Positions 4,068 through 30,188 are shown, counted from the first letter of the stretch. The stretch: DNA of 64,000 bases from Syntrophales bacterium (GCA_963666365.2 CAXXNF010000002.1:1824001-1888000), one strand, 5' to 3'. The notes: a model not told the origin generated them from the letters alone. Numbers and translations: made by a program.

Positions 4068-4169
4068 GTCCAGTGGGTCCGCAGCTGCGCTGCGGACCGA
4101 ACACAACGATAATTTTCAGAGAGCCGCCAGATCAAGCCGCGTATTCGTTCGCCGCAGGCGGTCGGGATG
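4068..4169 (-). repeat. Long attC/promoter repeat, copy A (internally deleted, fused to a half-palindrome)
   Basis: Visibly similar to 30036-30188; TTGATC-N18-TATCGT on - strand. Confidence 0.7.
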
Positions 4170-4297
4170 CATGTTTCGGGTATCCTAGCGGGCGCATCAC
4201 TTCACTCGGTCAAATTCATCCGATGGTTCGGCAAAACCGTTATTTCAAATTCTGTCAAGAATGAAGACCTGATTCAGCGGTTTTCAAAATAAGCTAT

Positions 4298-4723
4298 TTA
4301 CTTATCCCTTTTTCCCATCGCACTACGTTCATTATTTAACTCTTTCAGAAGGGCTGAAAGAGCCCAATGTTCTGAAAACGGCGTGAGCGTCGCCCACAAA
4401 GGGCGAGGCAATCCAGTGCCTTTGTAATGGGTAAGAATGTGGTGAAGCTCTCTTTCAGTAATTCCGGACATGACAACAGCACGTTCAATATTACAATTCG
4501 TGTTTCGTCCCGTCTGATTGGGCAAAGTCAGCAAATCACAAAGGCATTTCTCGGTATCTGCGTCTGTGGCAAAAATTACCGGAACATCTTTAATCTGAAT
4601 GGCGTCCAGTAATTTCATCAACGTTTTCTGTTCTGATGGCGTAAAGCCGCATACCAGCAAGGCTCTTGGCCCATACATCCGTTCCGTCGATTCTCCGACC
4701 TTTTTAAATGTCCCTTCACTCAT
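4298..4723 (-). CDS. DUF3783-like protein (cassette gene)
   Basis: PLWATLTPFSEHW..LLKEL..E motif; bounded by complementary GTTCGGC (4226-4232) and GCCGAAC (4745-4751). Confidence 0.7.
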   Translation of the reverse strand: MSEGTFKKVGESTERMYGPRALLVCGFTPSEQKTLMKLLDAIQIKDVPVIFATDADTEKCLCDLLTLPNQTGRNTNCNIERAVVMSGITERELHHILTHYKGTGLPRPLWATLTPFSEHWALSALLKELNNERSAMGKRDK

Positions 4724-4840
4724 GATGACTTCCTTATATTTATTGCCGAACGCTACTCATAACCAGTAGCCGGCTGTTATGGTCCCTCCGGATCATGATT
4801 GAAGTTTCCCCACTTTCAAAATCGCCCGGCAATCACTTCA

Positions 4841-5587
4841 TCACCGCTTCATCAGCGCGAACACGCCCCAGCCAAGGTATTCGCGCGTGTAAGCGGCGTA
4901 ACGCTCGGGTTCCGAGGTTAATGTGGCTCGAACATCTTTCGCGAACTCGTCGTCTGGATTGGCTTCCAGCCATTGGCGCATGGTGAGCCACTTGACCGCC
5001 TCGTACCTGTCCCAGCTGTCTTGGTCGGCCAGAACCATTTCCACAACATCGTAGCCAAGATGGCTGAAAGACGCGAGCAGTTCTGGAAGCAGGAGAAAAT
5101 CGGAGATCGAGTTGGCAAGACACCCCCTGGCAACATCTTCCGTCGGAGGTAACTGCCGCCAGTAGGGCTCACCGATGAGGATGATCCCTCCGGTGCGGAG
5201 GCTCTGCGCCAGAAGCTCGATAGTCCCGACGACTCCCCCGGCGATCCACGTGGCGCCGACACAGGCAGCCACACCGACCTTCTCGTCAGAAACATAGCCG
5301 GCAGCATCGCCATGGATGAACCTGACTTGATCGGCGACGCCGAGTTCTTCAGCGCGGAGTTTTGCGTGCTTGGTGAACAACTGACTCATGTCGATGCCGA
5401 TGCCGATGACTCCGTAATCGCGTGCCCACGTGCACAGCATCTCTCCCGATCCGCTGCCAAGGTCGAGCACTCGGGTCCCCGTTTCCAAACGCAGCGCCGC
5501 GCCGAGAGTGGCGAGCTTTTCCTTTGTGAACGGGTTATGGATGCGGTGAGCACTCTCGGTGATGTTGAAGATCCGTGGAATGTCCAT
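4841..5587 (-). CDS. SAM-dependent methyltransferase, YjhP-like
   Basis: MDIPRIFNITESAHRIHNP...VLDLGSGSGE; GGAG RBS before ATG 5587. Confidence 0.85.
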   Translation of the reverse strand: MDIPRIFNITESAHRIHNPFTKEKLATLGAALRLETGTRVLDLGSGSGEMLCTWARDYGVIGIGIDMSQLFTKHAKLRAEELGVADQVRFIHGDAAGYVSDEKVGVAACVGATWIAGGVVGTIELLAQSLRTGGIILIGEPYWRQLPPTEDVARGCLANSISDFLLLPELLASFSHLGYDVVEMVLADQDSWDRYEAVKWLTMRQWLEANPDDEFAKDVRATLTSEPERYAAYTREYLGWGVFALMKR

Positions 5588-5746
5588 TGCAGAAAATCTC
5601 CTTACGGGATTTTTACCATTATAGATGGTTTGCGATAGCATGGAGTCGTACTTTGACTATTGACTGAAATTGAAGAATCATTTCCGTATCTAGTCAGGAG
5701 TCAACGGCCTGACCCCATTCCCGCCCGATCGTTGCAATTGCGTGCC

Positions 5747-6121
5747 TTATTCTTTGGGATAATACTTGACATTACGCATATTTTTGAAATCTGAATCCTG
5801 AGTCCAGAGAATTGCTTTGAATTCTTGAGCCGTTGCGAGAATGATACTGTCCGCCATGGGAAGATTATGCTCCAAACTTAGCTTGGAAGCGGCAATTGTC
5901 AAAGGTGTGTTTATGTCGACAACAGTTCCTTTTTGCATAGCCACAACCGCCTGCAATGCTTCATTCTCGCCGGACTCTCGAAGAATGACCTTGAATACCT
6001 CGTATATCGTTACGGTTTGTACAACAAGCAAAGCGGAATCACTGAGCGGGGCTAAGAAATACTGGGCATTAGGCTCATCTGCGAAGTAGGCAAGCCAGCC
6101 TGAAGAATCAACTATATTCAT
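5747..6121 (-). CDS. vapC: Type II toxin, VapC/PIN domain
   Basis: NIVDSSGW...ADSIILATA...LWTQD acidic PIN motifs; overlaps the antitoxin stop. Confidence 0.9.
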   Translation of the reverse strand: MNIVDSSGWLAYFADEPNAQYFLAPLSDSALLVVQTVTIYEVFKVILRESGENEALQAVVAMQKGTVVDINTPLTIAASKLSLEHNLPMADSIILATAQEFKAILWTQDSDFKNMRNVKYYPKE

Positions 6122-6324
6122 AGCCGATCTCCCTCGCGGTTTAATTCCGTATTGATCCCCTTGAGGAATCCACGAAGCTCTTTGATATCACGTTCCGGTA
6201 TTAGTTCAATGCGCCCGGCATATTCAACAATTTGCATTTTTTGTCCAGGATAAAGCTTCAATGCCTCCCTGACTGTTTTAGGTATAACGACTTGGTATTT
6301 TGGTGATACAGTTACCGTTGGCAT
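6118..6324 (-). CDS. AbrB/MazE-fold antitoxin
   Basis: VSPKYQVVIPKTVRE.L motif. Confidence 0.9.
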   Translation of the reverse strand: MPTVTVSPKYQVVIPKTVREALKLYPGQKMQIVEYAGRIELIPERDIKELRGFLKGINTELNREGDRL

Positions 6325-6394
6325 GCCAATACCTCCATCGATATAGTATGTGCTACGATATCATTATCGATATAATTGTGTCAATTATACTGAT

Positions 6395-6453
6395 GCCCAA
6401 CGCAATCATCAGCCGCGGCGGGGTGCGTCGTCTGCTGCATGTTGTGGCTGGGC
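6395..6453 (-). repeat. attC site (degenerate)
   Basis: GCCCAAC...CAGCCG/CTGCTG stem...GCTGGGC. Confidence 0.6.
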
Positions 6454-6595: not shown

Positions 6596-7264
6596 TCAGC
6601 CCCGGCTGCGCCTTTGTACGCTGGCGGTTACTCCCTTATGGCGTGCTTGAAACGCCTCACGAATGATTTTGTTTTTTTCTTTTTGCCGTGATTTGCAGCC
6701 AAGCTCACCGAGGTCACCCAGTTCAGTCATTGCCACTTCATGGCAGGATGGGCAAAGTCCATGAGTCAATTGTGGCATTTGATCGGCCTCGAAAAGCCTG
6801 AAATGAGCTAAGCCCTCTTCAATTTCGGCCCATTGTCCCGGCAAGACTTTAATCTTCTTACACATGCTGCACACTGTCACCAATTCCGTTGATCTCGGTG
6901 TATCCGCGTCAAGCAGTCTGACTGGGTCCCTGGGCTCCGTTCGGAGGATTTTGCTTGTCATTTGGATATGTTCATCTGGTAGGGGCTCGACAAAGAGTTC
7001 GAGGTATCTTCGTTCACTGGGAGAATCGCACCGGAACGGAATAGGCCGCAAAGGCAGACCACATCTCACTCGTCTGAACAACTCCTGATAGAGATATCGC
7101 GTTTCGGGGCCTTGAATGAATTCCCACAGCTTGTGTCCCACCACATCTTCCGGACGCAGGGAACTGCCCCAAAGATTAGCATCAGCGAACCTGTCCCAAT
7201 TGGCGCTGACGCTTACGATAGTATCGGTGCTGTCAATTCGGTAAATGAAAACATCGTTGCTCAT
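6596..7264 (-). CDS. PAS-like protein with C-terminal CxxC...HGxCPxC motif
   Basis: PFRCDSP..RR; CSMCKK...[11 protein letters not shown] 7264 lies just inside the cassette boundary. Confidence 0.65.
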
Positions 7265-7280
7265 GTTATCTCCGTTTGTC

Positions 7281-7350
7281 ACCCAATGGGGCCGCGGCTG
7301 AGCGGCGGATCGAAGAAAATTTTAATTTTCAGAGGACCGGTACATCAAGC
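7281..7350 (-). repeat. Long attC/promoter repeat, copy B (one half)
   Basis: GGGGCCGCGGCTGAGC...GAAGAAAATT..AATTTTC.GAGGACCGG..ATCAAGC matches 30044-30106; TTGATG-N18-TAAAAT on - strand. Confidence 0.75.
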
Positions 7351-8056: not shown

Positions 8057-8067
8057 ATTCTTCTACC

Positions 8068-8586: not shown

Positions 8587-8604
8587 ATGATTACCTTTCG
8601 ATTG

Positions 8605-10914: not shown

Positions 10915-10977
10915 GACCGGTAGATCAAGCCGCCTGTTCGTCCGCCACAGAAGACGAAAGTCGCGGCCCCGTTCAGC
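10915..10977 (-). repeat. Long attC repeat, copy C (other half)
   Basis: GACCGGTAGATCAAGCCGC.TGTTCGTCCGCC...AGTCGCGGCCCCGTTC matches 30091-30160. Confidence 0.75.
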
Positions 10978-11038
10978 ATAACCGGCTGGTAAAAGCTGCG
11001 CCGCTTCGCTATGCAGCTTTTACCAGTCCGAGTTAATG
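10976..11038 (-). repeat. attC site
   Basis: GCATAAC; stem CTGGTAAAAGCTGC/GCAGCTTTTACCAG; GTTAATG. Confidence 0.75.
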
Positions 11039-14975: not shown

Positions 14976-15060
14976 ATTCCAGGGACAGTATACTTAATTT
15001 TACATCATCGGGTATTCACAAAGACTGCCTCAGTTGAATTAAGTATACTGTCCCTGGAAT
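14976..15060. mobile_element. Non-autonomous mini element (REPIN/MITE-like) with perfect 24-bp inverted repeats
   Basis: ATTCCAGGGACAGTATACTTAATT (14976-14999) and its exact complement (15037-15060), 37-bp spacer; resembles the IRs at 22249/22877. Confidence 0.8.
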
Positions 15061-15274
15061 TCAATTCAAAAAAGACCGACGCCGGTTTAAATTCGGGCGT
15101 TAGCGCCTTGATAATCTCGTCTTCTTTCCGGGTACGGTCAAGCGGAGCGAGTAGACGCACCGGTAACGCGCCATACACAATAAACGTGTCGGTTTCACAC
15201 AAAAGCGCTGCCGAGGTCCCGCTTAGCGCGATATGGCTGAAACGAGAACTGAATTGATATACTGGATTTACCAC
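15059..15274 (-). pseudogene. Truncated duplicate of the ycaO 5' end
   Basis: Near-identical to 21896-22111; cut off at the mini-element IR. Confidence 0.9.
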
Positions 15275-15291
15275 AGCAGGCAATCGGTCGG

Positions 15292-15543
15292 TTAACACCA
15301 AATTGAAGCTGCCACCCGCTCTTCCAGATTATCGAGGTTGGTCTCGCCTTCCTCCATATGCGGGATAACGAGGATCTCCTCGTTGGGGGCTTCTTCGAGA
15401 ACCCTGATTTTTACATAATCGGGAATTTCGACGTTCTCGCTCCTCAATACTGCGATTGGATCGCTGATGAGCCGTTGCTTGTACTCAGCATCGCCCCACG
15501 CTTTGGCTACAACCTTGGCCCACAGCTTGTTCATATCATTCAT
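15292..15543 (-). CDS. NHLP-leader RiPP precursor (83 aa), ending ...LEERVAA-SIWC
   Basis: VVAKAWGD..YKQRLISDP..VL...V.IP nitrile-hydratase-like leader; GGAGG RBS. Confidence 0.85.
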   Translation of the reverse strand: MNDMNKLWAKVVAKAWGDAEYKQRLISDPIAVLRSENVEIPDYVKIRVLEEAPNEEILVIPHMEEGETNLDNLEERVAASIWC

Positions 15544-15908
15544 TACTGATACCTCCACTATGGAATTTATCTGCTTGCGAAGCAATCTTCTAGCAAGTTT
15601 AATATGTTGGCTCTATATCACCTGGGATATTGCAATGCAAGATTAAACTACATACTTCAGAGTTGCAGCTCTGAGATCGTTTTTTCATCTGGAGCTATAG
15701 ATATGCCTTGACGAGGGATCAGAGATGTAGAATAAGTCAACAACTTAACATCAGAACGTTTCCGGGGTTCCCAACGTGCTTCTTTTTGGCCGCTGGTTGA
15801 CGCCTGATTTTGGGCAATGCTACAATTGCATCGGTCATGGCGGTAAGAAAGTGAATGTTTGATCCCGGTATGAGATGCGCCGAGCTGTCTTTTCCTATTA
15901 ACTGAATT

Positions 15909-18044: not shown

Positions 18045-18200
18045 TGCCCGGTACCGCTGCAAAAAATCAGTATCTCGCACCAAAATCCACACTTGGCAGG
18101 GTTATGGTAAAATGTGCAAATACGTCCCACTATCCCATGTTTGGCTTCCGGCCCGATCATGAATCTGGGCGAGTTGTCCCTTGGTAGTCATTGGGGCCTA

Positions 18201-19910
18201 TTACAATTCAAAGTCGCGGTGCGTAACCGCATAATATTGGGAATAGACAAACCGCACCAGGACAACCAGGGCGAAGACCAGGGTGAGCGGCGCCAGCGCC
18301 TGTAGCAGTCTGTTCTCGGCCGCATGGTGCGTGATGAATTCATAGAACGGCAGCAGGAAAAAGATGACGGTGAACACGGTCCCGAGTAGGCCGTACCCCA
18401 ACAAGAACGCCCGGTTCACGCCCGCGAATTCTTCCGCCTGGGCCGGCTCGGTGGTACCGCACAACCGGAAGACCAGGTAGCGCAAGTAGCGGAAGGAGCG
18501 GGAGCGCAGGTTCTTGATCCCGGACCAATCCATGAGCACGTAATATCCGTCCAGGCGCAGGAACGGGTTGAGGTTGAAGAGCAGGGAGATATAGCAGATG
18601 CAGGCTAGGGCCAGCACGAGCGTATCGAGGCCCGGCAGTACGGACGAGATGAAAAAGCTGCACCAGAAAAGACAGCTGCCCAGGGCAAAAGTCGTAAGCG
18701 GACCGGCCAGGGAAATAATAGCCCGCTGCCGCCAGTCCTTTAAACGCCAGGAGGAAGAGACATCGCAATAGAAGATAAAGGCCGCCAGGTAGAACATTAA
18801 GCCGAGACGGTAGATGCGGCAGCCGTAATGTTTGCTGGCCACGCCGTGCCCAAACTCGTGGATGATGACGATGAAAAAGAGTCCCAGGTAGACCAGGGCA
18901 AACAAAGTCGGGTTTGAGGAAACGAGCAGCGGCAGGTGCTTGGCCTGTTCCACGATCCGCGTCTGGTCGAGCCACAGCGGCACCAGCCCGGAGAGTGCGA
19001 TCAGGAGCATCAGGAAAAAGCCGGCCGGCGTTGCCAGGAAGCCGAGGCTGTGGTACACCGCGGTGACGGCGCGGTCGGCGTGACGGATGGAAAAATCCGG
19101 GTTAAGAAACCGCAGTAGCACGCGTTTGGCGCCGGGGGTGGACCTTTGCCCTTCGGTCTCGTCCAGCATTCCTTCCGCTTCCAATTTTTTATAGAGCGCT
19201 TCCAAGCGAGAAGGATGGATGAGTCCGTGTTCGTCAACAAAGCGCAGGTAGAGCTCGCGCACGGTGACGCTGCCGTCGAAGCGGCTGGCGAACCACGCAT
19301 ACTGCCAGTCAAGCTCCAGAATCTTGCCGGTACCGGTATCTTTTAGCAGGGCTCTGCCCGGAGCGCCGCTGGCGGGCGGTTCTCCGCCGTCAACGATTAT
19401 GCGCGGCAACAGCCGCGGCGCCACGCTGAGCACCCAGAGCTGCTTTTCAGCATGGGCGGGTCGGAAGTATCGCTCCATAATAAACTTTTGCTCTTTGCTG
19501 CTTCGGAAAAGGCGGACCCGGTCCATCCAGTGCTTTACCTGATGCAGCCAGAGGGTGTCGGTGTTGATATCTTCCAGATCGATATCGCCGGTGCCCAGAG
19601 TGAATTCTCCAAGCAGTTCCGGGGCCAGGGGAAGCCCGTTGCGGTAATGTACTTCGATCCGTAGTTTTTCGGCCAGGATGGCCATCTCGATTTTGATTAC
19701 CTCGCCCGGCGCCTGCCGCAGCAGCTCGCCGTATACTTCTTCAATGGCCGCGAGCACGGCCTGGTAAAATACCGGCGACAGGTCTAAACGGTGCAGCAAT
19801 GTGCTGGCGAGGTCAAAGATCGTTGTGAAGTTGTCGGCGGTAACCTCGCCGGTATAGGTCATCCTGGTTGCGGTTGGGACCGCGCGGTTTGGTTTCACCG
19901 GCTTCGCCAA
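18201..19910 (-). CDS. M50 (site-2) membrane metalloprotease with PqqD/RRE-like domain and degenerate HATPase-like N-terminus
   Basis: HEFGH, LAGP, NLNPFLRLDGY; FDGSVTVREL...L.AEGML RRE-like segment. Confidence 0.8.
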   Translation of the reverse strand: MAKPVKPNRAVPTATRMTYTGEVTADNFTTIFDLASTLLHRLDLSPVFYQAVLAAIEEVYGELLRQAPGEVIKIEMAILAEKLRIEVHYRNGLPLAPELLGEFTLGTGDIDLEDINTDTLWLHQVKHWMDRVRLFRSSKEQKFIMERYFRPAHAEKQLWVLSVAPRLLPRIIVDGGEPPASGAPGRALLKDTGTGKILELDWQYAWFASRFDGSVTVRELYLRFVDEHGLIHPSRLEALYKKLEAEGMLDETEGQRSTPGAKRVLLRFLNPDFSIRHADRAVTAVYHSLGFLATPAGFFLMLLIALSGLVPLWLDQTRIVEQAKHLPLLVSSNPTLFALVYLGLFFIVIIHEFGHGVASKHYGCRIYRLGLMFYLAAFIFYCDVSSSWRLKDWRQRAIISLAGPLTTFALGSCLFWCSFFISSVLPGLDTLVLALACICYISLLFNLNPFLRLDGYYVLMDWSGIKNLRSRSFRYLRYLVFRLCGTTEPAQAEEFAGVNRAFLLGYGLLGTVFTVIFFLLPFYEFITHHAAENRLLQALAPLTLVFALVVLVRFVYSQYYAVTHRDFEL

Positions 19911-22111
19911 TCGTCGAGCCGTATGCCGCAGTTCGAGTAGAAGAACGGGATGCGGCTCTGCTCTGCGGCGAGCCGGGGCGCCGGCAGCCAGCCGGCCCGG
20001 ACCGGCAAGTCGAAGAGGCGGGCGGTGGCGAACCGGGGCCAGAAGCGGCAGAGGCCGGGCACAATGACTCGCGTAACCACAAGCCCGTGCCCGGGCCGAG
20101 TAAGATCGATGGCCACGACCTCTAGGCCTAGCGCGGCACCGCGGGCCACCAGCAGTTCGATATCGTCTTTTAGGTTGCCGGTTTCCTGGCGCGGGAAATC
20201 GCTCGCTGTCCGTCGGGGCGCGTTAGCGGGGGCGACAAACGGTTTGGCCCAGAGTGGTTCCGGATCGTACTGCAAGCAGAAGTCGTGGAGCCGGAAATGG
20301 GGGGTCCAGTACCAAGACTGGCCCAACTCGGTGACGGCTCGATTCAGGGCGATGCCGGGATCAAGGTCGGCACCGAAACCCATTCGCGGGATCTCGCTTG
20401 GATTCGTGCGGTGGCGCGCCACTGCGACCACCACAGGCACATTAAAATCGTGGGTCAGGTCGAGAGCGTAGAAATCCCAGCCGTGCCGATCAAGATAGGC
20501 GCCCAACGGTTGCATTTGGGGCAGGGAGAAGGAATCGAGATCGAGCGCTGGCCGGGGGATCTGGTTGCACCACCAGATTGTGGCCGCATCCCGCTCAATT
20601 ACCTCGAGAAAACCGTGCAGCAGCGCTTCCTCAAGGCACCCACCCGAGGCTAGGCCGTTGGTGGCGGCATCGGCATAGTTTGTGCCATCCTCAGGAGGAA
20701 TCGAGAAATAGACGAAGGAGCGGGGCACCAGGCGCTTGGCCCGGTGGGTCAGGGACCAAGCTGGCGTCCAGGTTAGCTTCATGTCCGGTGCAAAATTGCC
20801 GGGGCCGAAGACGGGATCGGGCGGGCGGGTCGCGGCCCACTCCAGGTAGTCTGTTTCGTCGCAGCCGTAGATGCGGTGCGGCGGAACGGCTTCCCCGGCA
20901 ACTTCCGCATAACACGCCTGCACTACCGGTTCGTCGCCGCGATAGTAAGCCGAGGTCCGTTCGATCGCCTCGGCCACTGCGCTCAAACGCCCCTGCAGCT
21001 TCGTGAAGCCCTTGCCGTTACCGCCTGTGGGAACGAGGGCGCGCTTACGGTCGAAAAACCCAGCGTCGATAGGTACCGAAAAATGCGCGAGATGCGGGTA
21101 ACCGAATTCCGGCGGTACGCCGGCGAGCGGCGCCACGCGCTGCACAATCCCGGTGTGCGGGCTGATAAGCGGTTCGAGACTCGCCATGGCCTCCGCCGAG
21201 TCCCGGATGCGCAGACCGTTCTCCCGTGAGAGCTGACGGGGACGGGAGGTCAGGGTGAGCGGGGGCCCACTGTCGGGCCGGGCCCGGCGGGGGGCGCAGG
21301 TTTGGCATTGGCTGTCGTTGTCGACGCGATGGCAGCGTAGCGCTGCAGTGGCCAGATCGACGGTTACCAGGTGACCGCTAAATGCCGCGGCGGCCGGGCC
21401 GGTACCGGTTTTGCCTATTTCCGCCGCGAGCAGTTTGAACGTCGCACTGAGCGAGGCCTCCGAGCGTTCGCGGGAAAGGCGGAGCGGCTGGCCCGAAGTG
21501 CTATGGTCCAAGTGCCAGGCTTCAAGGCTGTGATTGCGTCTCAGCCGGGATATCAGACAGCCAAAGCAAGGATCGCCGTCGTGGCCGAAGCGCGGTCCGA
21601 ACCAGGGAACGCGGCCGACCGCCTTTACCGGGAGCCAAGACTGGCCGTGACTCCGGCTTGTGGCAAATTCGGCCAACTGCGGATCAAGGTAGTCGTCAAT
21701 GATGACTATTCTGAGCGGCAAGGGAACTAGGGCGGCCAAGTAGTGTTGCAAAAGCGGGCCAGCGCTGGGTTCCGTTCCTAAATCCACGATTTCCGAGAAC
21801 GCGTTTTTCCGGCTGGGCATTGCGTTGGCCGCGGTTAGCGGCCGCTTCGCGGCCGCGCTGCCGCCGGTCTCGAGGAAACCACCGTCGTGTAGCCGATTCA
21901 ATTCAAAAAAGACCGACGCCAGTTTGAATTCGGGCGTTAGCGCCTCGATAATCTCGTCTTCTTTCCGGGGACGGTCAAGCAGAGCGAGTAAACGCACCGG
22001 TAACGCGCCATACACAATAAACGTGTCGGTTTCACACAAAAGTGCTGCCGAGGTCCCGCTTAGCACGATATGGCTGAAACGAGGACTGAATTGATATACT
22101 GGATTTACCAC
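19895..22111 (-). CDS. TOMM fused cyclodehydratase (RRE/E1-like + YcaO)
   Basis: GP...PCFGC, CQTC; EAIER, TNGLASG...EEA...EVIERD ATP-binding motifs; RIPFF near the C-terminus. Confidence 0.9.
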   Translation of the reverse strand: MVNPVYQFSPRFSHIVLSGTSAALLCETDTFIVYGALPVRLLALLDRPRKEDEIIEALTPEFKLASVFFELNRLHDGGFLETGGSAAAKRPLTAANAMPSRKNAFSEIVDLGTEPSAGPLLQHYLAALVPLPLRIVIIDDYLDPQLAEFATSRSHGQSWLPVKAVGRVPWFGPRFGHDGDPCFGCLISRLRRNHSLEAWHLDHSTSGQPLRLSRERSEASLSATFKLLAAEIGKTGTGPAAAAFSGHLVTVDLATAALRCHRVDNDSQCQTCAPRRARPDSGPPLTLTSRPRQLSRENGLRIRDSAEAMASLEPLISPHTGIVQRVAPLAGVPPEFGYPHLAHFSVPIDAGFFDRKRALVPTGGNGKGFTKLQGRLSAVAEAIERTSAYYRGDEPVVQACYAEVAGEAVPPHRIYGCDETDYLEWAATRPPDPVFGPGNFAPDMKLTWTPAWSLTHRAKRLVPRSFVYFSIPPEDGTNYADAATNGLASGGCLEEALLHGFLEVIERDAATIWWCNQIPRPALDLDSFSLPQMQPLGAYLDRHGWDFYALDLTHDFNVPVVVAVARHRTNPSEIPRMGFGADLDPGIALNRAVTELGQSWYWTPHFRLHDFCLQYDPEPLWAKPFVAPANAPRRTASDFPRQETGNLKDDIELLVARGAALGLEVVAIDLTRPGHGLVVTRVIVPGLCRFWPRFATARLFDLPVRAGWLPAPRLAAEQSRIPFFYSNCGIRLDDWRSR

Positions 22112-22248
22112 AGCTTATTCATATCATTCACTACTGATACCTCCACTATGGAATTTATCTGCTTGCGAAGCAATCTTCTAACAAGTTTAATGTGTTAGCT
22201 CTATATCACCCAGGATATTGCAATTCAAGATTAAACTACATACTTCAG

Positions 22249-22900
22249 GGAATTCCGGGGACACCTTACTTATCTCTTTTTTTAGATCCAGGGCTTTGAT
22301 GCTTAAGTCTTCGGCCCAAAAGGTGTTCCATTGTCCCAATAAAAGAATCAGTTCCTAAGGGCCGACCGGTTCATTCGTGTTTTCTAAATAACGCTATTTC
22401 CTGATCCTGAGCATCAAAGGACAAGAAGTCTTCCCAAGGCTCATTTACTATTTCCAGCAATGGCTTTGTTTTTACAAGGATATCATCTTTGCCTTTCATA
22501 TGTGGACTGGCACTACTCCATTGCCAGTCGCCAGGCTTTTTTTTCACCAAGCCTGCCCGAACAGGATTTACTTCCACATATCTAGTACATGCTAAGAGAT
22601 ACCCCTCATCCATGATAAAAGATGAAAACCTTCCCTGCCATAAGTGCCCACGCCATCCTTCACGAAAATTGATCCATCCTGTGTATCTTCTGTGCGCTTC
22701 ACCAATTGCCTGATTCAAACCTTCCTTTGTTTCAGGTACAACAATCAATCGTTGAAAAATGTGTGCTTCTGCCTGTTTTCTTAGTGTGTTACATGATGCG
22801 GGATTCCCGGCGCTATTGCTCTTGCTATTCGTGCCATGTTTAGAATCAATCAAACTGGCTGGCTTTTGTCAATAATTAAGTAAGGTGTCCCCGGAACTCC
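22249..22900 (-). mobile_element. RAYT-type (Y1 HUH transposase) element with 24-bp terminal inverted repeats
   Basis: GGAATTCCGGGGACACCTTACTTA (22249-22272) and TAAGTAAGGTGTCCCCGGAACTCC (22877-22900), one mismatch. Confidence 0.8.
22280..22837 (-). pseudogene. REP-associated tyrosine transposase pseudogene
   Basis: MARIAR...PHHVTH*; HUH segment deleted; GHLWQGRF, YVEVNPVRAG, W.WSS retained; premature stop at HE*TGRPLG. Confidence 0.8.
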
Positions 22901-22927
22901 CAAATAAACATATCTATTTCACTTTCA

Positions 22928-23009
22928 ACCTAACGTCAAACCTAACGCGCGAGGGAAGGCCAGAGCGAAGCGGCGGCCTTCACTCGTCGCGTTCAGGTTC
23001 TTGTTGGAC
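22928..23009 (-). repeat. attC site
   Basis: ACCTAAC; AACCTAACGCG/CGCGTTCAGGTT stem; GTTGGAC, complementary to GTCCAAC at 26679. Confidence 0.85.
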
Positions 23010-23940
23010 GTCTCCTTGATGGAGCAGTTTCCTGGCTTCTTCGACGAACCCTTGCAGGTTGGGTGCCGCTGGAGGATCGTCGAGCAGTGCCTGAAGCGTC
23101 TTCTTCGCGTCTGCCACTGAGCCCCGGTGATACTACAGAACTCCGAGCGCCAGGCGGAGTTGCTTCCTGTCAGGGAAGTGGGCGATTGACTGGGAAATGA
23201 AACTGACGCATTGGTTTATCATCTCTTCCTCATATGAGGTCTTCTTGGCAAGGCCGAGACGGTACTGGTCCCTGGACCGTCGCAGGTCGCCAGTGAAGTT
23301 GTAGAGAAAGGCTAGTCCGAGGTTGCCGATGGAAGCGGCTCGCGGAGCCAGCAGATCAGCTTTCTCTTCCGCTCTGATTGCTCCCCTAATGTCCCCGGAG
23401 AGAAAGAGATAGATAGCTCGCGAGTTCTCGTGAATGGAGTTCTGGGGATCGAGTTTGGCCGCCTGTGTGACGTTCTTCAGCCACGCGGCGAGCAGATTGG
23501 GCGGGATGTCGTATATCTTTCCCTCAACTAACCACTTCCTGTACTGGTCGCCCGTTGCCATGGTCAGGGCATAAGCCAGATCAAACTGCACCTGCATCTG
23601 GAATCGTCTTACGGGAAGCGAGGTCTTCTTTGGGAACGCAGCCCTAAGATCCACGTGCAGCGGTCCCAGTATCTTTGCAGCTTCATCATGTCGTCGGTCG
23701 ATCAGCAATGCCAACCCAAGGACGTTGCGCACGACGATACCAATATCCTTGGCAACAAGTCGCTGGTCAGCGATTCGTGTTCCCTCACGTACGTGAAGTT
23801 GACGCTCAACAAGCGACATCGCCAACGTTTCGTGGCGTGAACGGTGGATGCGTGCAGGTCGGTGCACACAGGTAATGGAGATGTCAATGGTCTTTTAAAA
23901 ATGAGCCATTTTCGGTCGTGAAAACTGAGCCACTCGCCTC

Positions 23941-24711
23941 TTAACCATGGTCCATTTTTTCCTCCCCTTGCTCAGTGTTTTTCCGAAGTCTGTAACTGTT
24001 GCCCCGGATATTTATTATAATGCTGTGATGGAGCAGGCGATCCAGAAACGCCGTGACGATGACCGGATCGTGAAACAGCTCGGTCCAGTCGGAAAAGGCC
24101 TTGTTGGACGTGATCACAGTGCTGGCCTTCTCATAGCGGTTGGCAATGAATCTGAAAAAAAGGTTGCATTCCTCTCTGTCGATTGGTGTATAGCCGACCT
24201 CGTCAACGATCACCAGTGCCGATTTGTAATAGCTTCTTCCTCTGCCTTTGCGTCCTGCCTCGTGATCTTTTTTCAGTTTCCCGATTAGATCCTCCATCGT
24301 CGTAAAGTAAATGCTCATGCCCGCCTGACAGGCCTTCAATGCGAGAGAGACGGCCAGGTGGGTCTTGCCCACGCCCGGAGGCCCCAAAAAGATGACATTC
24401 CCTTTCTCACGGATAAAGGTCAGATCGAAAAGCGACATGACTTTCTGACGATCCAGCTTGGGTTGAAAGGTAAAGTCGAATTCATCAATGCTCTTGATAA
24501 AGGGGAGCCCCGATATCTTCAGCGCCGTTTCCACCCGTCGCTGTTCCTTGCAGGCGATTTCCTCTTCCAGCAGTTCGTCGAGAAAGGAAAGATAGCTTGC
24601 GCTTTTTTCCTCGGCCGTTTTGGTCGCCTGTACAAGTATGGCGCCCATTCGGGAGAGCCGAAGCCGCGTGAGACTGGACTGTATGCGATCGACAAGCAAT
24701 GTCTCGTTCAT
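23941..24711 (-). CDS. istB: IS21 helper ATPase IstB
   Basis: GPPGVGKTHLA, VDEVGY, TSN, DRLLHH, GNSYR. Confidence 0.95.
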   Translation of the reverse strand: MNETLLVDRIQSSLTRLRLSRMGAILVQATKTAEEKSASYLSFLDELLEEEIACKEQRRVETALKISGLPFIKSIDEFDFTFQPKLDRQKVMSLFDLTFIREKGNVIFLGPPGVGKTHLAVSLALKACQAGMSIYFTTMEDLIGKLKKDHEAGRKGRGRSYYKSALVIVDEVGYTPIDREECNLFFRFIANRYEKASTVITSNKAFSDWTELFHDPVIVTAFLDRLLHHSIIINIRGNSYRLRKNTEQGEEKMDHG

Positions 24712-25967
24712 AGGCCCATCTCCCCGACGAGCGAGTCATACAGCGCTGTGGGACGGATTTCAACGTCCATGGTGGCATAGGACGACTTCAAGGGACTGAT
24801 GGTGCATTTGGCGCGTCCCTTACCGTGTCTGCCCCGGCCATATTTGCGCTTGTTCATCTCCCGGTCTTTTCTGAGCGCCTCGTAGAAGCGGGGATCTTGG
24901 ACCAAGTTCCCCTTGCCTTCCGGAATGTCGTACGTCGCCAACAGGCAATCGTCGTGGAATATCCGCATGCATCTGTCCTTGACCCGTAAAATCAGATGCT
25001 TCCCCACCACGGTATGGGGCACTACATAACTGTTGCCTTCGAAACGGACCAGGCAGTCCTTGCTGACCTTGCGGTACACGCGGTACGACGTATCGAAAGG
25101 GCGGGAAGGCAACGCCTGTAAATGAGGAAGTTCGCGGGCGAAACGGCACGCTACGACTTCATGGGTGGTGCCGTGCACACGCTCGTCTTTCATTGCAATC
25201 CATTGCTGAAGATCTCGATTGGCCGTTGTGAGACACACATATCCGTACCCCCTCCAGAACCCTTCACGGATGAAATGGTAGGGCCGCTCGACTTTTCCCT
25301 TCACCCAGGCGGCATAGGCGGGGGCAACCGCCGGTTTGAACCCATTATGCAGCGCAAAGGCCATCAGCGTGTCGTTGAATCGATCTTTGCCGGCCAGTTT
25401 CCCGATGAACACGTTTCTCATGCGATCGTAAAGTATCTCCGCCGGGATGCCCCCGAAATGTTCGAAGGCGCGAATATGACAATCGAGAAAGGTGGGCAGG
25501 TCGCATCGCTCAATGAATTCGCCATACAGTTTTCTGGAGTATCCCAGAATCATTGAAAACAGATAGAGCTTCTTGACGCTCCCGTCGGCATTGGCAACCT
25601 GGAATTCACCAAAATCCACCTGCGCCTGAAAGCCCGGCTCCGTCTCAAACCGCATATAGGCCACGCGCTGTTGTTCCGCTTTGAGCTGATGCACCTGCCT
25701 TTTCACGATTTCATAACTTCCGGTAAATCCCATTGCACGGAGCCGATCATAGAGCAGGGTGGCCCTGTACTCGCCGTCTTCCTCCAACCATGCCGCAATA
25801 TTGTCCCTATAGGGATCTACGAGACTCTTGCGCTTCGCCTTCTCTCTCGTAACTCCCTGATCCCCTTGATTCTCTATATACTTCTTCACCGTGTTCCTGC
25901 TGATCCCCAGCTTCCGTGAAATGTGCCTCTGGCTCAGTCCTCTTCTCTGTAATAACAATATGTCCAA
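24708..25967 (-). CDS. istA: IS21 transposase IstA
   Basis: N-terminal HTH, RFETEPG.QAQVDF, KGKVER. Confidence 0.95.
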   Translation of the reverse strand: MDILLLQRRGLSQRHISRKLGISRNTVKKYIENQGDQGVTREKAKRKSLVDPYRDNIAAWLEEDGEYRATLLYDRLRAMGFTGSYEIVKRQVHQLKAEQQRVAYMRFETEPGFQAQVDFGEFQVANADGSVKKLYLFSMILGYSRKLYGEFIERCDLPTFLDCHIRAFEHFGGIPAEILYDRMRNVFIGKLAGKDRFNDTLMAFALHNGFKPAVAPAYAAWVKGKVERPYHFIREGFWRGYGYVCLTTANRDLQQWIAMKDERVHGTTHEVVACRFARELPHLQALPSRPFDTSYRVYRKVSKDCLVRFEGNSYVVPHTVVGKHLILRVKDRCMRIFHDDCLLATYDIPEGKGNLVQDPRFYEALRKDREMNKRKYGRGRHGKGRAKCTISPLKSSYATMDVEIRPTALYDSLVGEMGL

Positions 25968-26678
25968 AACGGTCTCCTTTTTTTCAAATCAGCCACCTCG
26001 ATTACTCTGAGATAAATAACCATACTTTACTCATTCATCTCATTAACTCCACCTCTAAGTGGCTCACTTTTAAACGACCATTTTTGGCTCAGTTTATCAC
26101 GACCATGAACAGGAGAGCTTGGAGAACCCTGTTGTCTTCCCATCAGCTGACTCCTGCTGCTCAAATGGCCCCCAAACAGCAACAACGCCACGGGATTCCC
26201 GCAGCATGCGCGTGGCCTCTTCTGCTGAGTCCAGAGAAAGGTTGGGAGGTAGGCGCTTGAGATGGAACCGCACTCCCAGTTCATGGGACTTGATCTCTTG
26301 CCTCAGATGGACAAACAGTCGGTCTATCACGTCCTGTGTGGCTGGTGCTGCATTGGGGGCGAAGAGAATACCAAGCTCGTTCCTCTTGAAACGTGGAACC
26401 GAGCGAATCCGGGACCAGAACCCCGCAGCGATGAAAGGCGCGAGAAGGAACCCAAGCAGATAGAACGCACGACACCACCCGAGTGCCCCGTCGCAGCCCA
26501 AGGAATTCAGCAACAGTACTACGTCGCGGCCGACTGCCCGCACAACACCGTAGTAGAGCGCTTCGGCCGCCAGCAGGAGCACAACCAAGCCGTCAGCGAA
26601 GTGCAGCCTTTTCCGGAGAAACTGCAGGATGTCGATCGCCTTGTCCATGGTTGCGACTGGTTCTCCTTCTTTTCCTCC

Positions 26679-26739
26679 GTCCAACGCCCGGCATCAACGG
26701 CCCGAGGTACGAGGGTCCGCTTGGATGCCGATGTTAGGA
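26679..26739 (-). repeat. attC site
   Basis: GTCCAAC; CGGCATC.A.CGG/CCGCTTGGATGCCG stem; GTTAGGA. Confidence 0.9.
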
Positions 26740-27393
26740 TTTACTTTCCCCTTCAACTGAAAATGCACCTTGTGCGTCTGAGAATCGCGTACATAAATCA
26801 TCGATACGTGAGGTAAAATCCATCGTTCCAGTAGTTTTACGATCAGTCCAGTATTTTGCAGTAAGTGTTTCTGGTTTCAGACTCGGCCCGTGAGTCTCAA
26901 TGATGATGGCACCTTGGTGCATCTCACTAATTCTTTCGTCTCGGAGGTGAACATTGGGCTCATTAGTATAAACCCCGATAATTTGGAAACCGTTACCATT
27001 GGGTGACGGTCTTACATGGTCCGCGATAAACCATGACTCAGATTCAGGGGTCATTAGATGCATTTGAAGCTTAGAAAGCGTCTGCTTGACGCCCATATAG
27101 CAAACAATCATTGGGACACGTTCATTGGTTTCGGGGCTTACATAACTTGATTGGAGTTCGACACGCCATGTTCCCCTAAGATCGGGCCGCTTGACGAACC
27201 AACCGTGAAGAAATGAGTGACGCCATAAGACAAATTCAAAGAGTAATCCGAGCCCGACTAAGCAGCTGACAACAACACTGAAGGGGCGGGCATGAGACCA
27301 AGATATAGGTGTGCCCTGACATAACAGCACAATCAGCCAAATGATCACGGCAATGGCAAGGAAAGCTGTAATATGGAGTCGATCAAGTTTCAT
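26734..27393 (-). CDS. cap15: CBASS 2TM beta-barrel effector, Cap15-like
   Basis: Two N-terminal TM helices, PDLRGTW, KQT, YTNEP, HQG, YWTDRKTTG; ATGA overlap with the CD-NTase stop. Confidence 0.8.
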   Translation of the reverse strand: MKLDRLHITAFLAIAVIIWLIVLLCQGTPISWSHARPFSVVVSCLVGLGLLFEFVLWRHSFLHGWFVKRPDLRGTWRVELQSSYVSPETNERVPMIVCYMGVKQTLSKLQMHLMTPESESWFIADHVRPSPNGNGFQIIGVYTNEPNVHLRDERISEMHQGAIIIETHGPSLKPETLTAKYWTDRKTTGTMDFTSRIDDLCTRFSDAQGAFSVEGESKS

Positions 27394-28316
27394 ATTGGCT
27401 TTACTCCAACATAATCCCACGCCGCATTAATAAAAGCGTGTGCTTGTTCTCGTGTCCATGGTTGCACTACATGGAAGAGGTATTTGATGTCATCAACTTC
27501 ACACCATTTATCGCAATTTGTCACTTCGTTAGTATTCTGCCATAGATATCTTAGCACTGACTGGACGCGGTCTACCCAAGTATACTTATCAAAACACCAA
27601 TTTGGTGCATTCCATACAAGACATTCAAGAAGATAACCAGGAACGGCTTTTGCCTGATCGTTGCCTAAGTCCTCCAATTCAATACGCAATTTCTTCAAGA
27701 TGCGAACCATTCCTTTAAAGCGTTGACTTGTGGAGCTGTTTTTTGAGACACCATTTTCGTAGTGCAACGGAGTAGATGGCCAGTAATCTACTAGACGCTC
27801 AGGATAATTCTCGATTCTGCGTATGCTATTGTCGGGGTAAAGAGCAACTCCTGCACGATAACTACCATTGTCCCAATAATGTCGAAATTCGAAAAGTGGC
27901 ACAACATCAGCTTCAACTCGTGTCTGAGTTGCTTTGATATCAAAGGCCTTGTTACCTCGTTTTACTGCAGCGATGCCAAAGTAATCGACGAGGGCTCCCT
28001 CTAACTCATTTTTGAACTGTGAGAAAGAGTAGCCAGCATCACTGTTTCCAAAATCGGCATGCTTTTTCCCTTCTGGATACTGTGAGAGGAAGTAATCGTA
28101 GAGCATCACACCAACGTCTACGTCGCTGTCTTGACGAACATTAACACGGTTGCGAAACGATCCTTGTGTGAAGACTTGTATTTTTCTATGTTGAAGTTTC
28201 GGGCTTTGACTAACTGCGGCTTTAATAGCTCGAATGACTCGCTCACAGCGTTCCTGCTCAGTCTTACTGGGCGACTGTGCCCAAAAGGTAAAAGTACTCT
28301 CCCAATCACGACTCAA
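27390..28316 (-). CDS. CBASS CD-NTase (cGAS/DncV-like nucleotidyltransferase, CdnE-like)
   Basis: QGSFRNRVNVRQDSDVD, EADVVP, NYPE..H..NG..KN, YLLECLVWN. Confidence 0.9.
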   Translation of the reverse strand: MSRDWESTFTFWAQSPSKTEQERCERVIRAIKAAVSQSPKLQHRKIQVFTQGSFRNRVNVRQDSDVDVGVMLYDYFLSQYPEGKKHADFGNSDAGYSFSQFKNELEGALVDYFGIAAVKRGNKAFDIKATQTRVEADVVPLFEFRHYWDNGSYRAGVALYPDNSIRRIENYPERLVDYWPSTPLHYENGVSKNSSTSQRFKGMVRILKKLRIELEDLGNDQAKAVPGYLLECLVWNAPNWCFDKYTWVDRVQSVLRYLWQNTNEVTNCDKWCEVDDIKYLFHVVQPWTREQAHAFINAAWDYVGVKPI

Positions 28317-28397
28317 TGCAATTCTCCCTATGAATTTATCTACAAATTATGAGGACTGATAATGTTTTCATTTTCTTCACTCTTCGTCTACTAGTAA

Positions 28398-28480
28398 TCC
28401 TAACGCCTGCGCATCACCGGCGGCCTGCCGTAGCCGCTTCGTGGCGAAGGCGGACGTCCGCGTGCATGCGCTTGTTAGGG
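28398..28480 (-). repeat. attC site
   Basis: TCCTAAC; GCGCAT.CAC.CGG/CCGCGTGCATGCGC stem; GTTAGGG. Confidence 0.9.
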
Positions 28481-29035
28481 ATTTAGTGATTCAATTTCTT
28501 CTTGCCAAAAATTTTTTACAGATTCAGCAATCTTCATAAAACTTGTTTCAATTCCATCTTTTGTCTCAATAATCAGTTCTTCAGTAGGGGAAATTGATAT
28601 GCCATTAATTTTTTTAATTTGAGAAATTGGAACGCCATTAATCTTGGAAATTTTAGTAATTGGCACACCATTAACTTTTGAAATTCCCCCTTTTGAAGCT
28701 TGCTTCGCGGACTTCACAATATTCACTGTGCTATTGTGATAATGTTTATAAATGATCGACAAATCGTGACAAATTTGAAGTTCAGGACACAGCCGGTAAA
28801 CCTTTTCAAAAAATATTTTCCAAGTTTCGCATCCTTTTTCTTCTAACGCCTTATTAGTATCGGGATAATTAAAAACCTTATCCGTTAGATGCCATGCTGT
28901 TAATGCGAAATTAATTGCATGATCAACATGCTCGTTGATGTCTTGTCCGACAGATTTGGATAGTCGTCCATACTCTCTATTTAATTTCTTTAAATCTTCA
29001 AAAGGGCTTGAATTTCTAAATAATTTATCGTTCAT
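28475..29035 (-). CDS. Hypothetical cassette protein, possibly HEPN-like, with three 11-aa repeats
   Basis: NFALTAWHLTD...ICHDLSIIYKH; ISKVNGVPITK/ISKINGVPISQ/IKKINGISIS; stop codon lies in the attC core site. Confidence 0.6.
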   Translation of the reverse strand: MNDKLFRNSSPFEDLKKLNREYGRLSKSVGQDINEHVDHAINFALTAWHLTDKVFNYPDTNKALEEKGCETWKIFFEKVYRLCPELQICHDLSIIYKHYHNSTVNIVKSAKQASKGGISKVNGVPITKISKINGVPISQIKKINGISISPTEELIIETKDGIETSFMKIAESVKNFWQEEIESLNP

Positions 29036-29042
29036 AATCCCT

Positions 29043-29110
29043 CCCTAACGTTGTGGATGAGGGGCGCGCCGCGATTTTTTGCCGCGTCCCTCTCTAGCCG
29101 CTTGTTAGAG
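29043..29110 (-). repeat. attC site
   Basis: CCCTAAC; GAGGGGCGCG/CGCGTCCCTC stem; GTTAGAG. Confidence 0.9.
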
Positions 29111-29112
29111 CT

Positions 29113-30012
29113 TTACTCGATGGACGCTCCTTTACCGAAATTACATTCATTGCAGAGCGTTCGTAGATTATCAATTACCGTCTTTCCGCCTTTTGACCAA
29201 GGAACGATATGATCAACATGTAGCTCAAGGTTTGCTGTATTGGCCGGGCTTCGACCGCATTTTTCACATTTGTAGTTTGATCTCTTTAAAATTTTCCATC
29301 GACGCCCAAGAGGTATATCTCTTCTCTCTGGAACTGGTACTGATTGTTTCCTCTGCTTCGGACCATTAATGGTCGGAGGCGGAGCGGGCTGGTCGGAGTT
29401 TGCATATTCCACAAATGCCTCAAGAGCTTTATTCCACGTACCCCACTTTACAATATATGCTTTTCCACCAACTTTAGACGGCGGTGCTGACATTTCTCGA
29501 TAATATGGCTCCCTACCAAGGGTAGACCACATTAACAAAATATTCTCGTAACACTCTTCTTCTGTATATCGTCGCCCATGTGTTTTTGCTTGGAGTCCTG
29601 CACGCTTTAATGCCGCATTCCATGAGCCGAATCTTCTGCGAACTGTATCTGGACTTATAGTTGAGTGATCTCTGAACTCATTAACTGTTAACGTTTCCTT
29701 TCCAAGCGTTCGCGCAACTTCTATAACTTGTAAAAGCACCTCATCATCCATTGCTTTTGCGCCCTGGCGTTGAGTTTTTTCAGATAATGTTGGCGTATTG
29801 TATAAATGAGGGAATCCGGAAATCGTTAGTGCGTTTTTCCAACTTACGAAGCGTCTACGAACAGTGGTAAGACCTACTTTAGAATGTTTTTGGAACTCTG
29901 CGGTAGAAAGGGTACCGCTTGATACAAGCCTACAAACTCTTTTAATTTCTGCAATTAAATTATCATCCGAATAATCAGAAAGACGTTTTAGTTTAAACGA
30001 AAATTTTTTCAT
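29113..30012 (-). CDS. HNH endonuclease with N-terminal homing-endonuclease-associated repeats
   Basis: Three RRF.SW..AL-like repeats; CEKCG...LHVDHIVPWSKGG...NLRTLCNECN; start inside the cassette boundary GCTCTAAC (30036). Confidence 0.85.
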   Translation of the reverse strand: MKKFSFKLKRLSDYSDDNLIAEIKRVCRLVSSGTLSTAEFQKHSKVGLTTVRRRFVSWKNALTISGFPHLYNTPTLSEKTQRQGAKAMDDEVLLQVIEVARTLGKETLTVNEFRDHSTISPDTVRRRFGSWNAALKRAGLQAKTHGRRYTEEECYENILLMWSTLGREPYYREMSAPPSKVGGKAYIVKWGTWNKALEAFVEYANSDQPAPPPTINGPKQRKQSVPVPERRDIPLGRRWKILKRSNYKCEKCGRSPANTANLELHVDHIVPWSKGGKTVIDNLRTLCNECNFGKGASIE

Positions 30013-30035
30013 AATTGTGCTGTAAAAATTTTTGT

Positions 30036-30163
30036 GCTCTAACGGGGCCGCGGCTGAGCTGCGGTCCGAAGAAAATTGTAATTTTCTGAGGACCGGCAGA
30101 TCAAGCCGCGTGTTCGTCCGCCGCAGGCGGCGGCACGTGGCGACAGTCGCGGCCCCGTTCATC
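30036..30163 (-). repeat. Long attC site containing a sigma70-like promoter (copy D, intact)
   Basis: AACGGGGCCGCGGCTG/CAGTCGCGGCCCCGTT arms; TTGATC (30104-30099) N18 TACAAT (30080-30075). Confidence 0.8.
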
Positions 30164-30188
30164 CCGACCGCTTGCGGTCGGGATGAAC
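30157..30188. repeat. 32-bp palindrome forming the body of a gene-less cassette
   Basis: GTTCATCCCGACCGC-TT-GCGGTCGGGATGAAC between two attC sites. Confidence 0.85.

Follow-up and report, generated by a model that had tools for sequence, protein, structure and literature searches.

Does a cassette without a gene persist in an integron-type array because it carries a promoter, or because it is little more than its own recombination site? This question is raised by a 64,000-nt stretch of DNA from a Syntrophales bacterium (the window; the genome is denoted G000), in which one intact and three broken copies of a hairpin-forming element are found in a series of cassettes read on the - strand. The first-pass annotation of this DNA had proposed a family of gene-less cassettes with a sigma-70-like promoter built into a long attC site, i.e. 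the recombination site of a cassette. The analysis points to a different answer, to which a probability of roughly one half is given: the element would be a minimal, self-propagating cassette made up of an attC-like site only, belonging to a widespread family, and its promoter-like boxes would come from the fold.

The locus is an integron-type cassette array that lacks a complete integrase. The open reading frames (ORFs) from position 1 to about 31.3 kb lie nearly all on the - strand, and many of them are fragments or, as judged from Pfam and NCBIfam, typical cassette cargo. On the - strand (1-34 kb), the gaps between them close with imperfect inverted repeats that have AAC at one end and GTT at the other; such attC-like sites are seen, for example, at 29111-29049, 30246-30182, 28474-28400, 23030-22960, 11040-10975, 11985-11915 and 13340-13270 (- strand). 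Furthermore, the first bases of a cassette are complementary to its own R'' box, as with GTTAGAGC (30043-) and GCTCTAAC (29111-29104), and with GTTAGCC (31255-) and GGCTAAC (30246-30240).

The intact element is one cassette of this array and has a length of 145 bp. Read on the - strand, it consists of TTCATCC, the palindrome CGACCGC-AA-GCGGTCG, R'' GGATGAAC, L'' GGGGCCGCG, arm B, arm A, L' CGCGGCCCC and the G of the next GTT, its start (GTTCATCC / TTCATCC) being exactly complementary to its own R'' GGATGAAC. It is gene-less, as had been annotated, but the 32-bp body assigned to it is in fact R', a 16-nt palindrome and R''. Likewise, the attC-like hairpin of about 125 bp stood up to folding, although it is branched and not simple: the site of about 125 nt forms a stem with two arms. 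The intact copy folds with -60.9 kcal/mol on the + strand (z-score -8.5) and -57.2 kcal/mol on the - strand (z-score -7.0), values equalled by none of 200 shuffled sequences. The stem formed by the R and L boxes (the R-L stem) and both arms belong to the minimum-energy fold of the bottom (+) strand, whereas the R-L stem is absent from that of the top strand. As the cassette has no content other than its recombination site, excision would yield a circle of 145 nt consisting almost wholly of one branched hairpin, in which a 24-bp stem (extended R box and L box) would run from a loop of 2-3 nt at one end to a three-way junction with arms B and A at the other.

All four related copies are located where the first-pass annotation had placed them: a repeat search links 4062-4161, 7275-7350, 10915-10981 and 30031-30167 (families D3, D5, D7 and D15), and a BLAST search of the whole genome with the intact element recovered the same three partial copies in the window. 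Elsewhere in the genome, copies of 151 bp (CGTT...GTTAG) occur at C2:558960-559110, with 100% identity, and at C2:1664178-1664028, with 96% identity. Neither the gene and attC before a 151-bp copy nor the sense-oriented gene after it is the same from place to place, and at either end the flanks begin to diverge exactly at GTT. The element is, or was, mobile as a unit with boundaries between the G and the TT (G/TT). Taken together, the array context and these G/TT breaks bear out the annotated view of a gene-less cassette that consists in its bulk of a long attC-like hairpin and is located in a cassette array. Deletion forms are found as well, one without arm A (C2:1069785), one without both arms and thus reduced to a hairpin of about 50 nt (C2:1640406) and one ending inside the spacer (C2:1662186); the copies at 4 kb, 7 kb and 10.9 kb of the window are a 5'-deleted, a 5'-replaced and a 3'-truncated form, respectively. 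In run X4, a contig of 155 nt comprises 30039-30189 only, and in run X1 the contigs break inside the element, as expected for a repeat. One X1 joint, from 30189 to 31253 (short side, 26 letters), is not a clean cassette excision. Relatives of the R'-palindrome-R'' module (TTATCCCGACYGC...GTCGGGATAA) were also observed at 2515-2548 and at 52722-52755, the latter far outside the array.

For the collection of the family, an anchor pattern in arm B, containing no hexamer position, was run over genome and metagenome contigs; the cassette 5'-end pattern included GTTCATCCC forms. The scan yielded 50 stretches of genome contigs and 91 of metagenome contigs with 143 pattern matches, of which 72 lacked the 3' family motif and four more (L066, L067, L070 and L071) were removed as coding look-alikes. 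The remaining 67 loci represent 44 distinct cores, and 52 members were used in the alignment. Of these loci, 47 have the palindrome that marks the empty form and 16 the same attC without it; in four the flank is too short to tell. Some of the palindrome-free sites lie behind an apparent coding sequence (L027-L029, L037, L040, L044, L050 and L133). Besides metagenomes, the titles of the records with members name Nitrospirales, candidate division NC10, Binatia, Desulfobacteraceae, Syntrophales and 'Deltaproteobacteria' assemblies, and several members from such titled assemblies are located on contigs of 0.2-2.7 Mb. When 41 and 38 related genomes were searched by BLAST, two besides this one proved to have the element, namely a genome of the same genus (G001) and one of another genus (G019; 76% identity), and on one metagenome contig four members (L140, L121, L122 and L123) are found within 5.5 kb. 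A highly repeated element of at least 190 nt that also matches the arm-B pattern (L023, L031, L034, L036, L041 and others) was rejected as unrelated; it lacks the family 3' stem and comes from a single 'Deltaproteobacteria' assembly, in which numerous short contigs contain it, and from the corresponding metagenome (many VGRO01/Ga0194120 loci).

The fold is conserved in this family. The outer stem covaries strongly among the 52 aligned members, columns 75-211, for example, reading GC 18, CG 17, AU 7 and UA 6 times, and several positions show four pair types. Across 19 sequences with an AT-rich tip, 88.3% of the arm-A cells are paired and seven of 23 pairs show compensatory changes, a result reached by none of 500 shuffles, with slid controls at 26-54%. 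The strand opposite the genes (bottom strand) is the more stable one in 46 of 49 members (mean -48.0 vs -44.3 kcal/mol), as expected for a site that is used as bottom-strand DNA; a strand test of arm A based on G-T versus A-C mismatches was uninformative (15 vs 16). The element shares with attC sites the co-oriented AAC/GTT array, the G/TT boundaries, a 5' end complementary to its own R'' and a hairpin with conserved pairing. Its core sites are GATGAAC (R'') and GTTAGAG or GTTCATC (R'), in which AAC and GTT are kept and the degenerate positions follow RYYYAAC / GTTRRRY only in part, GTTRRRY being the R' consensus given in PMC11014356.

A further line of evidence comes from the position of the family relative to the integrase gene. 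In this genome even the best score with TIGR02249, the integron integrase model, stays below the cut-off of 265 bits; it is that of the recombinase which accompanies an IS91-family transposase (31681-33818), and no complete integron integrase was found. A remnant has survived where the array begins: the ORF at 34245-34039, which points toward the array, ends in 35 residues that match TIGR02249 positions 281-315 (E 4.2e-11), the last ones of the model, and share only 31% identity with the IS91-linked recombinase. The ATTGTT 164 nt downstream aligns with the intI-adjacent sites of G054, L054 and L086, and its distance from the IntI remnant equals theirs from intI. G054 encodes a full-length IntI (483 bits); 165 nt separate its end from ATTGTT, which is directly followed by a GC-tipped empty cassette, and L143 is a 98% copy of this arrangement. 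The same layout, with a partial IntI in the available flank, is seen in the AT-tipped L054 and L086. G058/L055 has a divergent full IntI (418 bits), and the first cassette there is again an empty one, with a long tip. Thus, the first cassette beside the integrase gene is a family member in L046/L143, L054, L086 and L055, with a full IntI 165-200 nt away in G054 and G058. As the first position is the landing place of newly captured cassettes, its repeated occupancy suggests frequent capture of family members. In the genome under study, the IS91-family element and one more cassette are located between the attI-like GTT and the intact cassette. A weak hint of the direct arrangement is given by an X3 contig of a related organism (depth 2, side 26) that joins 30185 to 33873, i.e. 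the attI-like GTT directly to CATCCCGACC, the cassette start. The IS91-family transposase and its tyrosine recombinase (31681-33818) start right after the attI-like GTT, and a second, identical copy of them is located near C2:440000. About 32 kb before the window and on the other strand, G000:C2:1791625-1791738 (+) gives a second short match to the C-terminal end of the integrase model (E 7.8e-9, positions 275-313) and may be another degraded platform.

On the preferred reading, an integron integrase would spread and maintain the element by recombining it at G/TT like any other cassette. Because only a 35-residue remnant of the integrase is left, the copies in this genome are probably frozen and decaying by now, which would account for the three broken copies of the window. 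TTGA-C is one strand of the base stem of arm A and TACAAT the AT-rich tip of one sub-lineage, and any transcription from these boxes would be a side effect or a late, lineage-specific exaptation and not the reason for the upkeep of the family.

The hexamer pairs themselves were correctly reported on the - strand, each with an 18-nt spacer: TTGATC 30104-30099 and TACAAT 30080-30075, TTGATG 7348-7343 and TAAAAT 7324-7319, and TTGATC 4135-4130 and TATCGT 4111-4106. The 10.9-kb copy ends just past TTGATC and has the -35-like box only. The repeat family is far beyond chance, and the promoter match does not appear to be: the sigma-70-like match amounts to nine of 12 positions with the 18-nt spacer, and sites with at least 9/12 number 10 in 22000-32000, compared with 11.8 +/- 2.7 in shuffled sequences. 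Conservation of the hexamers in homologues beyond the needs of base pairing, which the first-pass annotation had named as a check, came out negative, a 9/12 match being confined to this genome's three copies among the 52 aligned members; none was found in the other 49 on either strand, nor on the antisense strand. Relative to the intact copy, the hexamers have changed at 2/12 (7-kb copy), 3/12 (4-kb copy) and 6/12 positions (G019), the rest of arm A at 7/46, 9/46 and 13/46, so that they are no better kept than their surroundings and diverge as fast or faster; both hexamers are retained in two of the six decayed genome copies.

What is conserved instead is pairing. Arm A of the 44 cores occurs as a short GC hairpin (25 cores, typically GGCT-N-GA-N-C...GACGGGCCTTCGGCCCGC...GCTCAGCC), with a long AAGCAAGCTT tip (two cores) or with an AT-rich tip (17 cores). 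The -35-like TTGA-C is the 5' side of the conserved base stem, with GCTCAGCC as its partner. Pairing with this near-invariant GCTCAGCC explains the persistence of GGCT-N-GA in most GC-type cores, which have no -10; the N, equivalent to the first T of TTGA, is bulged, and in these cores the base is A, G or C. The common AT-tipped form of the metagenomes, TTGAGC-17-TAAATT, matches at 8/12 only. In L123, a T-A pair at the top of the stem has become C-G, by which the pair is kept and the -10 destroyed; L155 has no -10 either, and in L024/L006 CTAAGC replaces the -35, with compensating changes opposite. The loop of the G000/G001 lineage is 2 nt longer, giving a -10 match of 5/6. As the AT-rich tip is missing in 27 of the 44 distinct cores, a promoter cannot explain the family. 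No sigma-54-type motif was seen in arm B by eye.

Several observations weigh against the reading of an attC-only cassette with fold-derived boxes. Extrahelical bases and an unpaired central spacer are hallmarks of characterised attC sites and important for strand choice. Both the fold and the family alignment show the R-L stem AAC-GGGGCCGCG / CGCGGCCCC-GTT as uninterrupted, with neither extrahelical bases nor an unpaired central spacer, and this lack of the usual irregularities makes the site atypical as an attC; the two arms may supply the missing asymmetry. That IntI recombines any member of the family is something we infer. The term 'selfish' is argued from the absent cargo, and the conservation across phyla and the first-position occupancy could equally mean a function useful to the host. 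Moreover, the anchor pattern itself fixes part of arm B in every collected member, and the members are related, so that the counts are not independent. Finally, TTGAnC is present in 18 of 21 AT-tipped sequences and a TAnnnT box at 16-18 nt in 19 of 21, and the bulge T occurs only in AT-tipped cores (14/17, against 0/27 of the others).

These last figures, for which common ancestry would also account, speak at the same time for a portable promoter cassette, in which the AT-tipped arm A would be a sigma-70 promoter (TTGATC-18-TACAAT) with a start in the 3' half of the attC, turning on the downstream cassette and kept for that purpose. The hexamers do face a sense gene, as annotated, located 10-75 nt downstream in all three intact genome copies; the nine matching positions include the key TTGA and TA...AT, and hybrids that have lost the 5' half of the attC retain arm A before a gene (window 7.3 kb; G001). 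There is also precedent. Most of 29 gene-less cassettes of Vibrionaceae are reported to have sense promoter activity, one of them (F2) with transcription starts inside the attC (Blanco et al., Nucleic Acids Research 2024, PMC11014356), promoter activity is described for ORF-less cassettes of oral Treponema (Tansirichaiya et al., Scientific Reports 2019, PMC6557892), and both cases are summarised in a review (PMC8876359). According to the Vibrio study, however, in-silico promoter prediction failed to foretell the activity of its gene-less cassettes (PMC11014356). The bulge T, the arm-A hybrids before genes and the longer G000/G001 loop can all be explained by shared descent. With matches at chance frequency, most cores devoid of the AT tip and hexamers that diverge like the rest of the arm, the view of the hexamers as a selected, built-in promoter was not supported; a promoter seems plausible for this lineage only, is not favoured by the comparative test and is regarded as doubtful.

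The very stable, conserved and covarying fold, the sequence conservation across phyla and the repeated place beside attI/intI could also be those of a structured element useful to the host, acting either as read-through RNA (small RNA, 3'-end stabiliser or insulator) or as a DNA site near attI to which the integrase or a host protein binds, modulating recombination or the expression of the array. With its conserved palindrome of 16 nt, CGACCGC-N-GCGGTCG, the element has an operator-like part, and ORF-less cassettes of Xanthomonas are said to encode regulatory RNAs (PMC8876359). An RNA of this kind is at odds with the better folding of the antisense strand in 46 of 49 members, the even distribution of arm-A G-T pairs between the strands, the lack of a terminator-like T-run after either arm and the lack of any Rfam family at threshold (best 18.7 bits vs a gathering score of 81), and such a function is considered unlikely. 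The absence of cargo, the terminal inverted repeats and the many copies would in turn fit a miniature non-autonomous transposable element or a repetitive extragenic palindrome (REP)-like repeat that targets the GTT of attC by means of another enzyme, e.g. of the IS91 or IS1111-attC type; the regular R-L stem and the IS91-family element at the attI-like GTT of the window agree with it as well. However, the same attC (arms A and B, L' and R') ends palindrome-free cassettes, the junctions are exactly of the cassette-insertion type, with the 5' end complementary to the element's own R'', all copies found are located at junctions of the attC or attI-like type (next to IntI wherever the available sequence covers the platform), and the plasmid and phage collections gave zero matches to the family, all of which makes this origin very improbable. 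The attC-only cassette therefore is the explanation that we prefer. The coordinates of its parts and of the related features are listed in Table 1.

Table 1. Positions of the intact cassette, its parts, the related copies and the adjoining features in the window
Feature	Position	Strand	Remarks
Intact gene-less cassette, 145 bp	30043..30187	-	From TT of GTTCATC to G of GTTAGAG; ends match those of the 100% and 96% copies
Perfect 32-nt palindrome	30157..30188		R' GTTCATC, CCGACCGC-AA-GCGGTCGG and R'' GATGAAC; own R' pairs with own R''; from sequence and folds
R'' and L''	30148..30163	-	R'' GATGAAC 30163-30157, L'' GGGGCCGCG 30156-30148; bulge-free pairing with L'/R'
Arm B	30105..30147	-	GC-rich hairpin, core GCCTGCGGCGGACGAACACGCGGCT; from fold; anchor for the collection scans
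Arm A	30053..30104	-	23-pair hairpin with AT-rich tip AAAATTACAATTTT; contains both promoter-like hexamers; zero mismatches in the intact copy
-35-like TTGATC	30099..30104	-	Positions 1, 3, 4 and 6 in stem; 2 is a bulged T; 5 opposite a mismatch
-10-like TACAAT	30075..30080	-	Apical loop and first stem pairs of arm A; 18 nt past the -35-like box
L' and R'	30037..30052	-	L' CGCGGCCCC 30052-30044, R' GTTAGAG 30043-30037; TTAGAG is part of the next (HNH) cassette
attC of upstream cassette	30182..30246	-	R'' GGCTAAC 30246-30240 to R' GTTCATC 30188-30182; cassette begins with GTTAGCC 31255-31249
Downstream cassette	29049..30042	-	HNH endonuclease gene (ATG 30013, stop 29113) and own attC 29111-29049
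Decayed copy	4068..4169	-	A deletion between short GC repeats has removed R''/L'' and part of arm B; nine unpaired positions in arm A; R' changed to ACTGGAC
Chimeric copy	7281..7350	-	Arm A and L' only, with unrelated 5' half; eight unpaired positions; R' is ATTGGGT
5'-half copy	10915..10981	-	R'', L'', arm B and -35-like box; fused to truncated CitMHS gene; no -10
Isolated R'-palindrome-R'' module	2515..2548	-	GTTTATCCCGACCGCAGGCAGTCGGGATAA, without attC; repeat family D8
Integron platform remnant	33873..34245	-	ORF 34245-34039, 68 codons; ATTGTT 33878-33873, 164 nt downstream, likely attI crossover

The cargo of the array comprises PIN/MazE and Phd antitoxin genes, a truncated CitMHS gene, a GH15 fragment, the HNH nuclease and a nucleotidyltransferase resembling those of cyclic-oligonucleotide-based anti-phage signalling systems (CBASS) together with a Cap15-domain protein. 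Among the neighbours that had been named as targets of the hexamers, the HNH nuclease (29113-30013) was recognised by Pfam as HNH_repeat (1.3e-31) and HNH (5.6e-14), and the GH15 region corresponds to the GH15 fragment at 2609-3916; the supposed PAS-like gene, ORF 6596-7282, had no match to any Pfam or NCBIfam family. In the CBASS-like pair at 26734-28316, the nucleotidyltransferase is of the anti-phage type (NF053871, E 7.9e-43), and its partner contains the Cap15 receptor domain for cyclic dinucleotides (PF18153, E 4.5e-13); the pair, flanked by attC-like sites on both sides, would represent a cassette-borne defence system. At 31253-31468, two identical units of 108 bp are arranged in tandem, with self-complementary ends (TTGGAC...GTCCAAC) and an attC-like hairpin GGATTGTATGCGG / CCGCATACAACC; on the - strand the shared and the downstream boundaries are GTT and the outer 5' boundary is ATA. 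They have the appearance of another ORF-less mini-cassette, unrelated to the first one, after a duplication. The island at 15059-22248 contains genes for a 738-aa YcaO cyclodehydratase, for an M50 peptidase-like and a radical-SAM/B12 protein, and a small nitrile-hydratase-alpha-like ORF. It has direct repeats on its flanks, of 219 nt with 96% identity and of 141 nt with 94%, and a higher GC content (up to 0.63), and looks like a gene cluster for a ribosomally synthesised and post-translationally modified peptide inserted in the array. The array is furthermore interrupted at 23941-25967 by an IS21-family element (istA-like transposase and istB ATPase), at the end of which the depth of the X1 and X4 contigs goes up as for a multi-copy element. 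At the Rfam gathering score, the only hit in the window was a tRNA at 61322-61394.

Gene-less cassettes, some of them acting as promoters, are known already. What this case adds is a cassette reduced to the recombination site alone, a branched attC-like site that lacks the usual irregularities and is conserved in sequence across assemblies titled Nitrospirales, NC10, Binatia and Desulfobacteraceae and a Syntrophales-type lineage, and the presence of a family member as first cassette beside the integrase gene in several integrons. The literature searched contained no attC-only cassette family, no branched attC and no description of this sequence family. If recombination-proficient, the element would be a compact natural substrate for learning what an integron integrase needs in an attC, and a candidate 'selfish' cassette that bears on the origin of attC sites for new cassettes. 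The promoter idea has become a defined test, for which the AT-tipped and GC-tipped natural variants and the pairing-preserving L123 are ready-made controls. A bolder and rather unlikely proposal is that attC-only cassettes across phyla are hyper-mobile passengers of integrons that repeatedly take the attI-proximal slot, and that in one sub-lineage, including this genome, the tip of the hairpin has come to serve, by exaptation, as a promoter directed outward. If this were true, the recombination site would double as a movable switch of the array, possibly replacing the cassette promoter Pc where the integrase gene points toward the cassettes, and as a bolder corollary free attC-only cassettes would be the raw material of new gene cassettes.

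Among known systems, clusters of attC sites without an integron integrase (CALINs) resemble the window in that its array has attC sites and no complete intI; unlike them, it still has a recognisable attI-like site and the 35-residue IntI remnant at its head. The long attC repeats of V. cholerae (about 128 bp according to PMC11014356) are similar to the present site of about 125 nt in their AAC...GTT ends, G/TT crossover, lineage-specific conserved sequence and better-folding bottom strand. They form a single long hairpin and are found within one genus, whereas the family described here has a three-way junction and a continuous R-L stem, free of extrahelical bases or a central bubble, and is shared across phyla. 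The promoter cassettes of the Vibrionaceae superintegron, as described in PMC11014356, are likewise ORF-less, located in a large chromosomal array and sense to the next cassette. Their body lies outside the attC and their activity was measured, whereas in the present, GC-rich family from several phyla the body is 16 nt and the candidate promoter is in the hairpin itself. The oral Treponema cassettes, compared by description, are also gene-less, and the promoter role proposed here is reported as shown there (PMC6557892); here the 9/12 match is found in three of 52 aligned members only. Finally, the group IIC-attC intron with its outward promoter (PMC3001079) is also a mobile element at attC that is able to give downstream cassettes a promoter, but it is described as a retroelement of about 2 kb with an enzyme of its own, in contrast to the 145 bp without coding capacity of the cassette described here.

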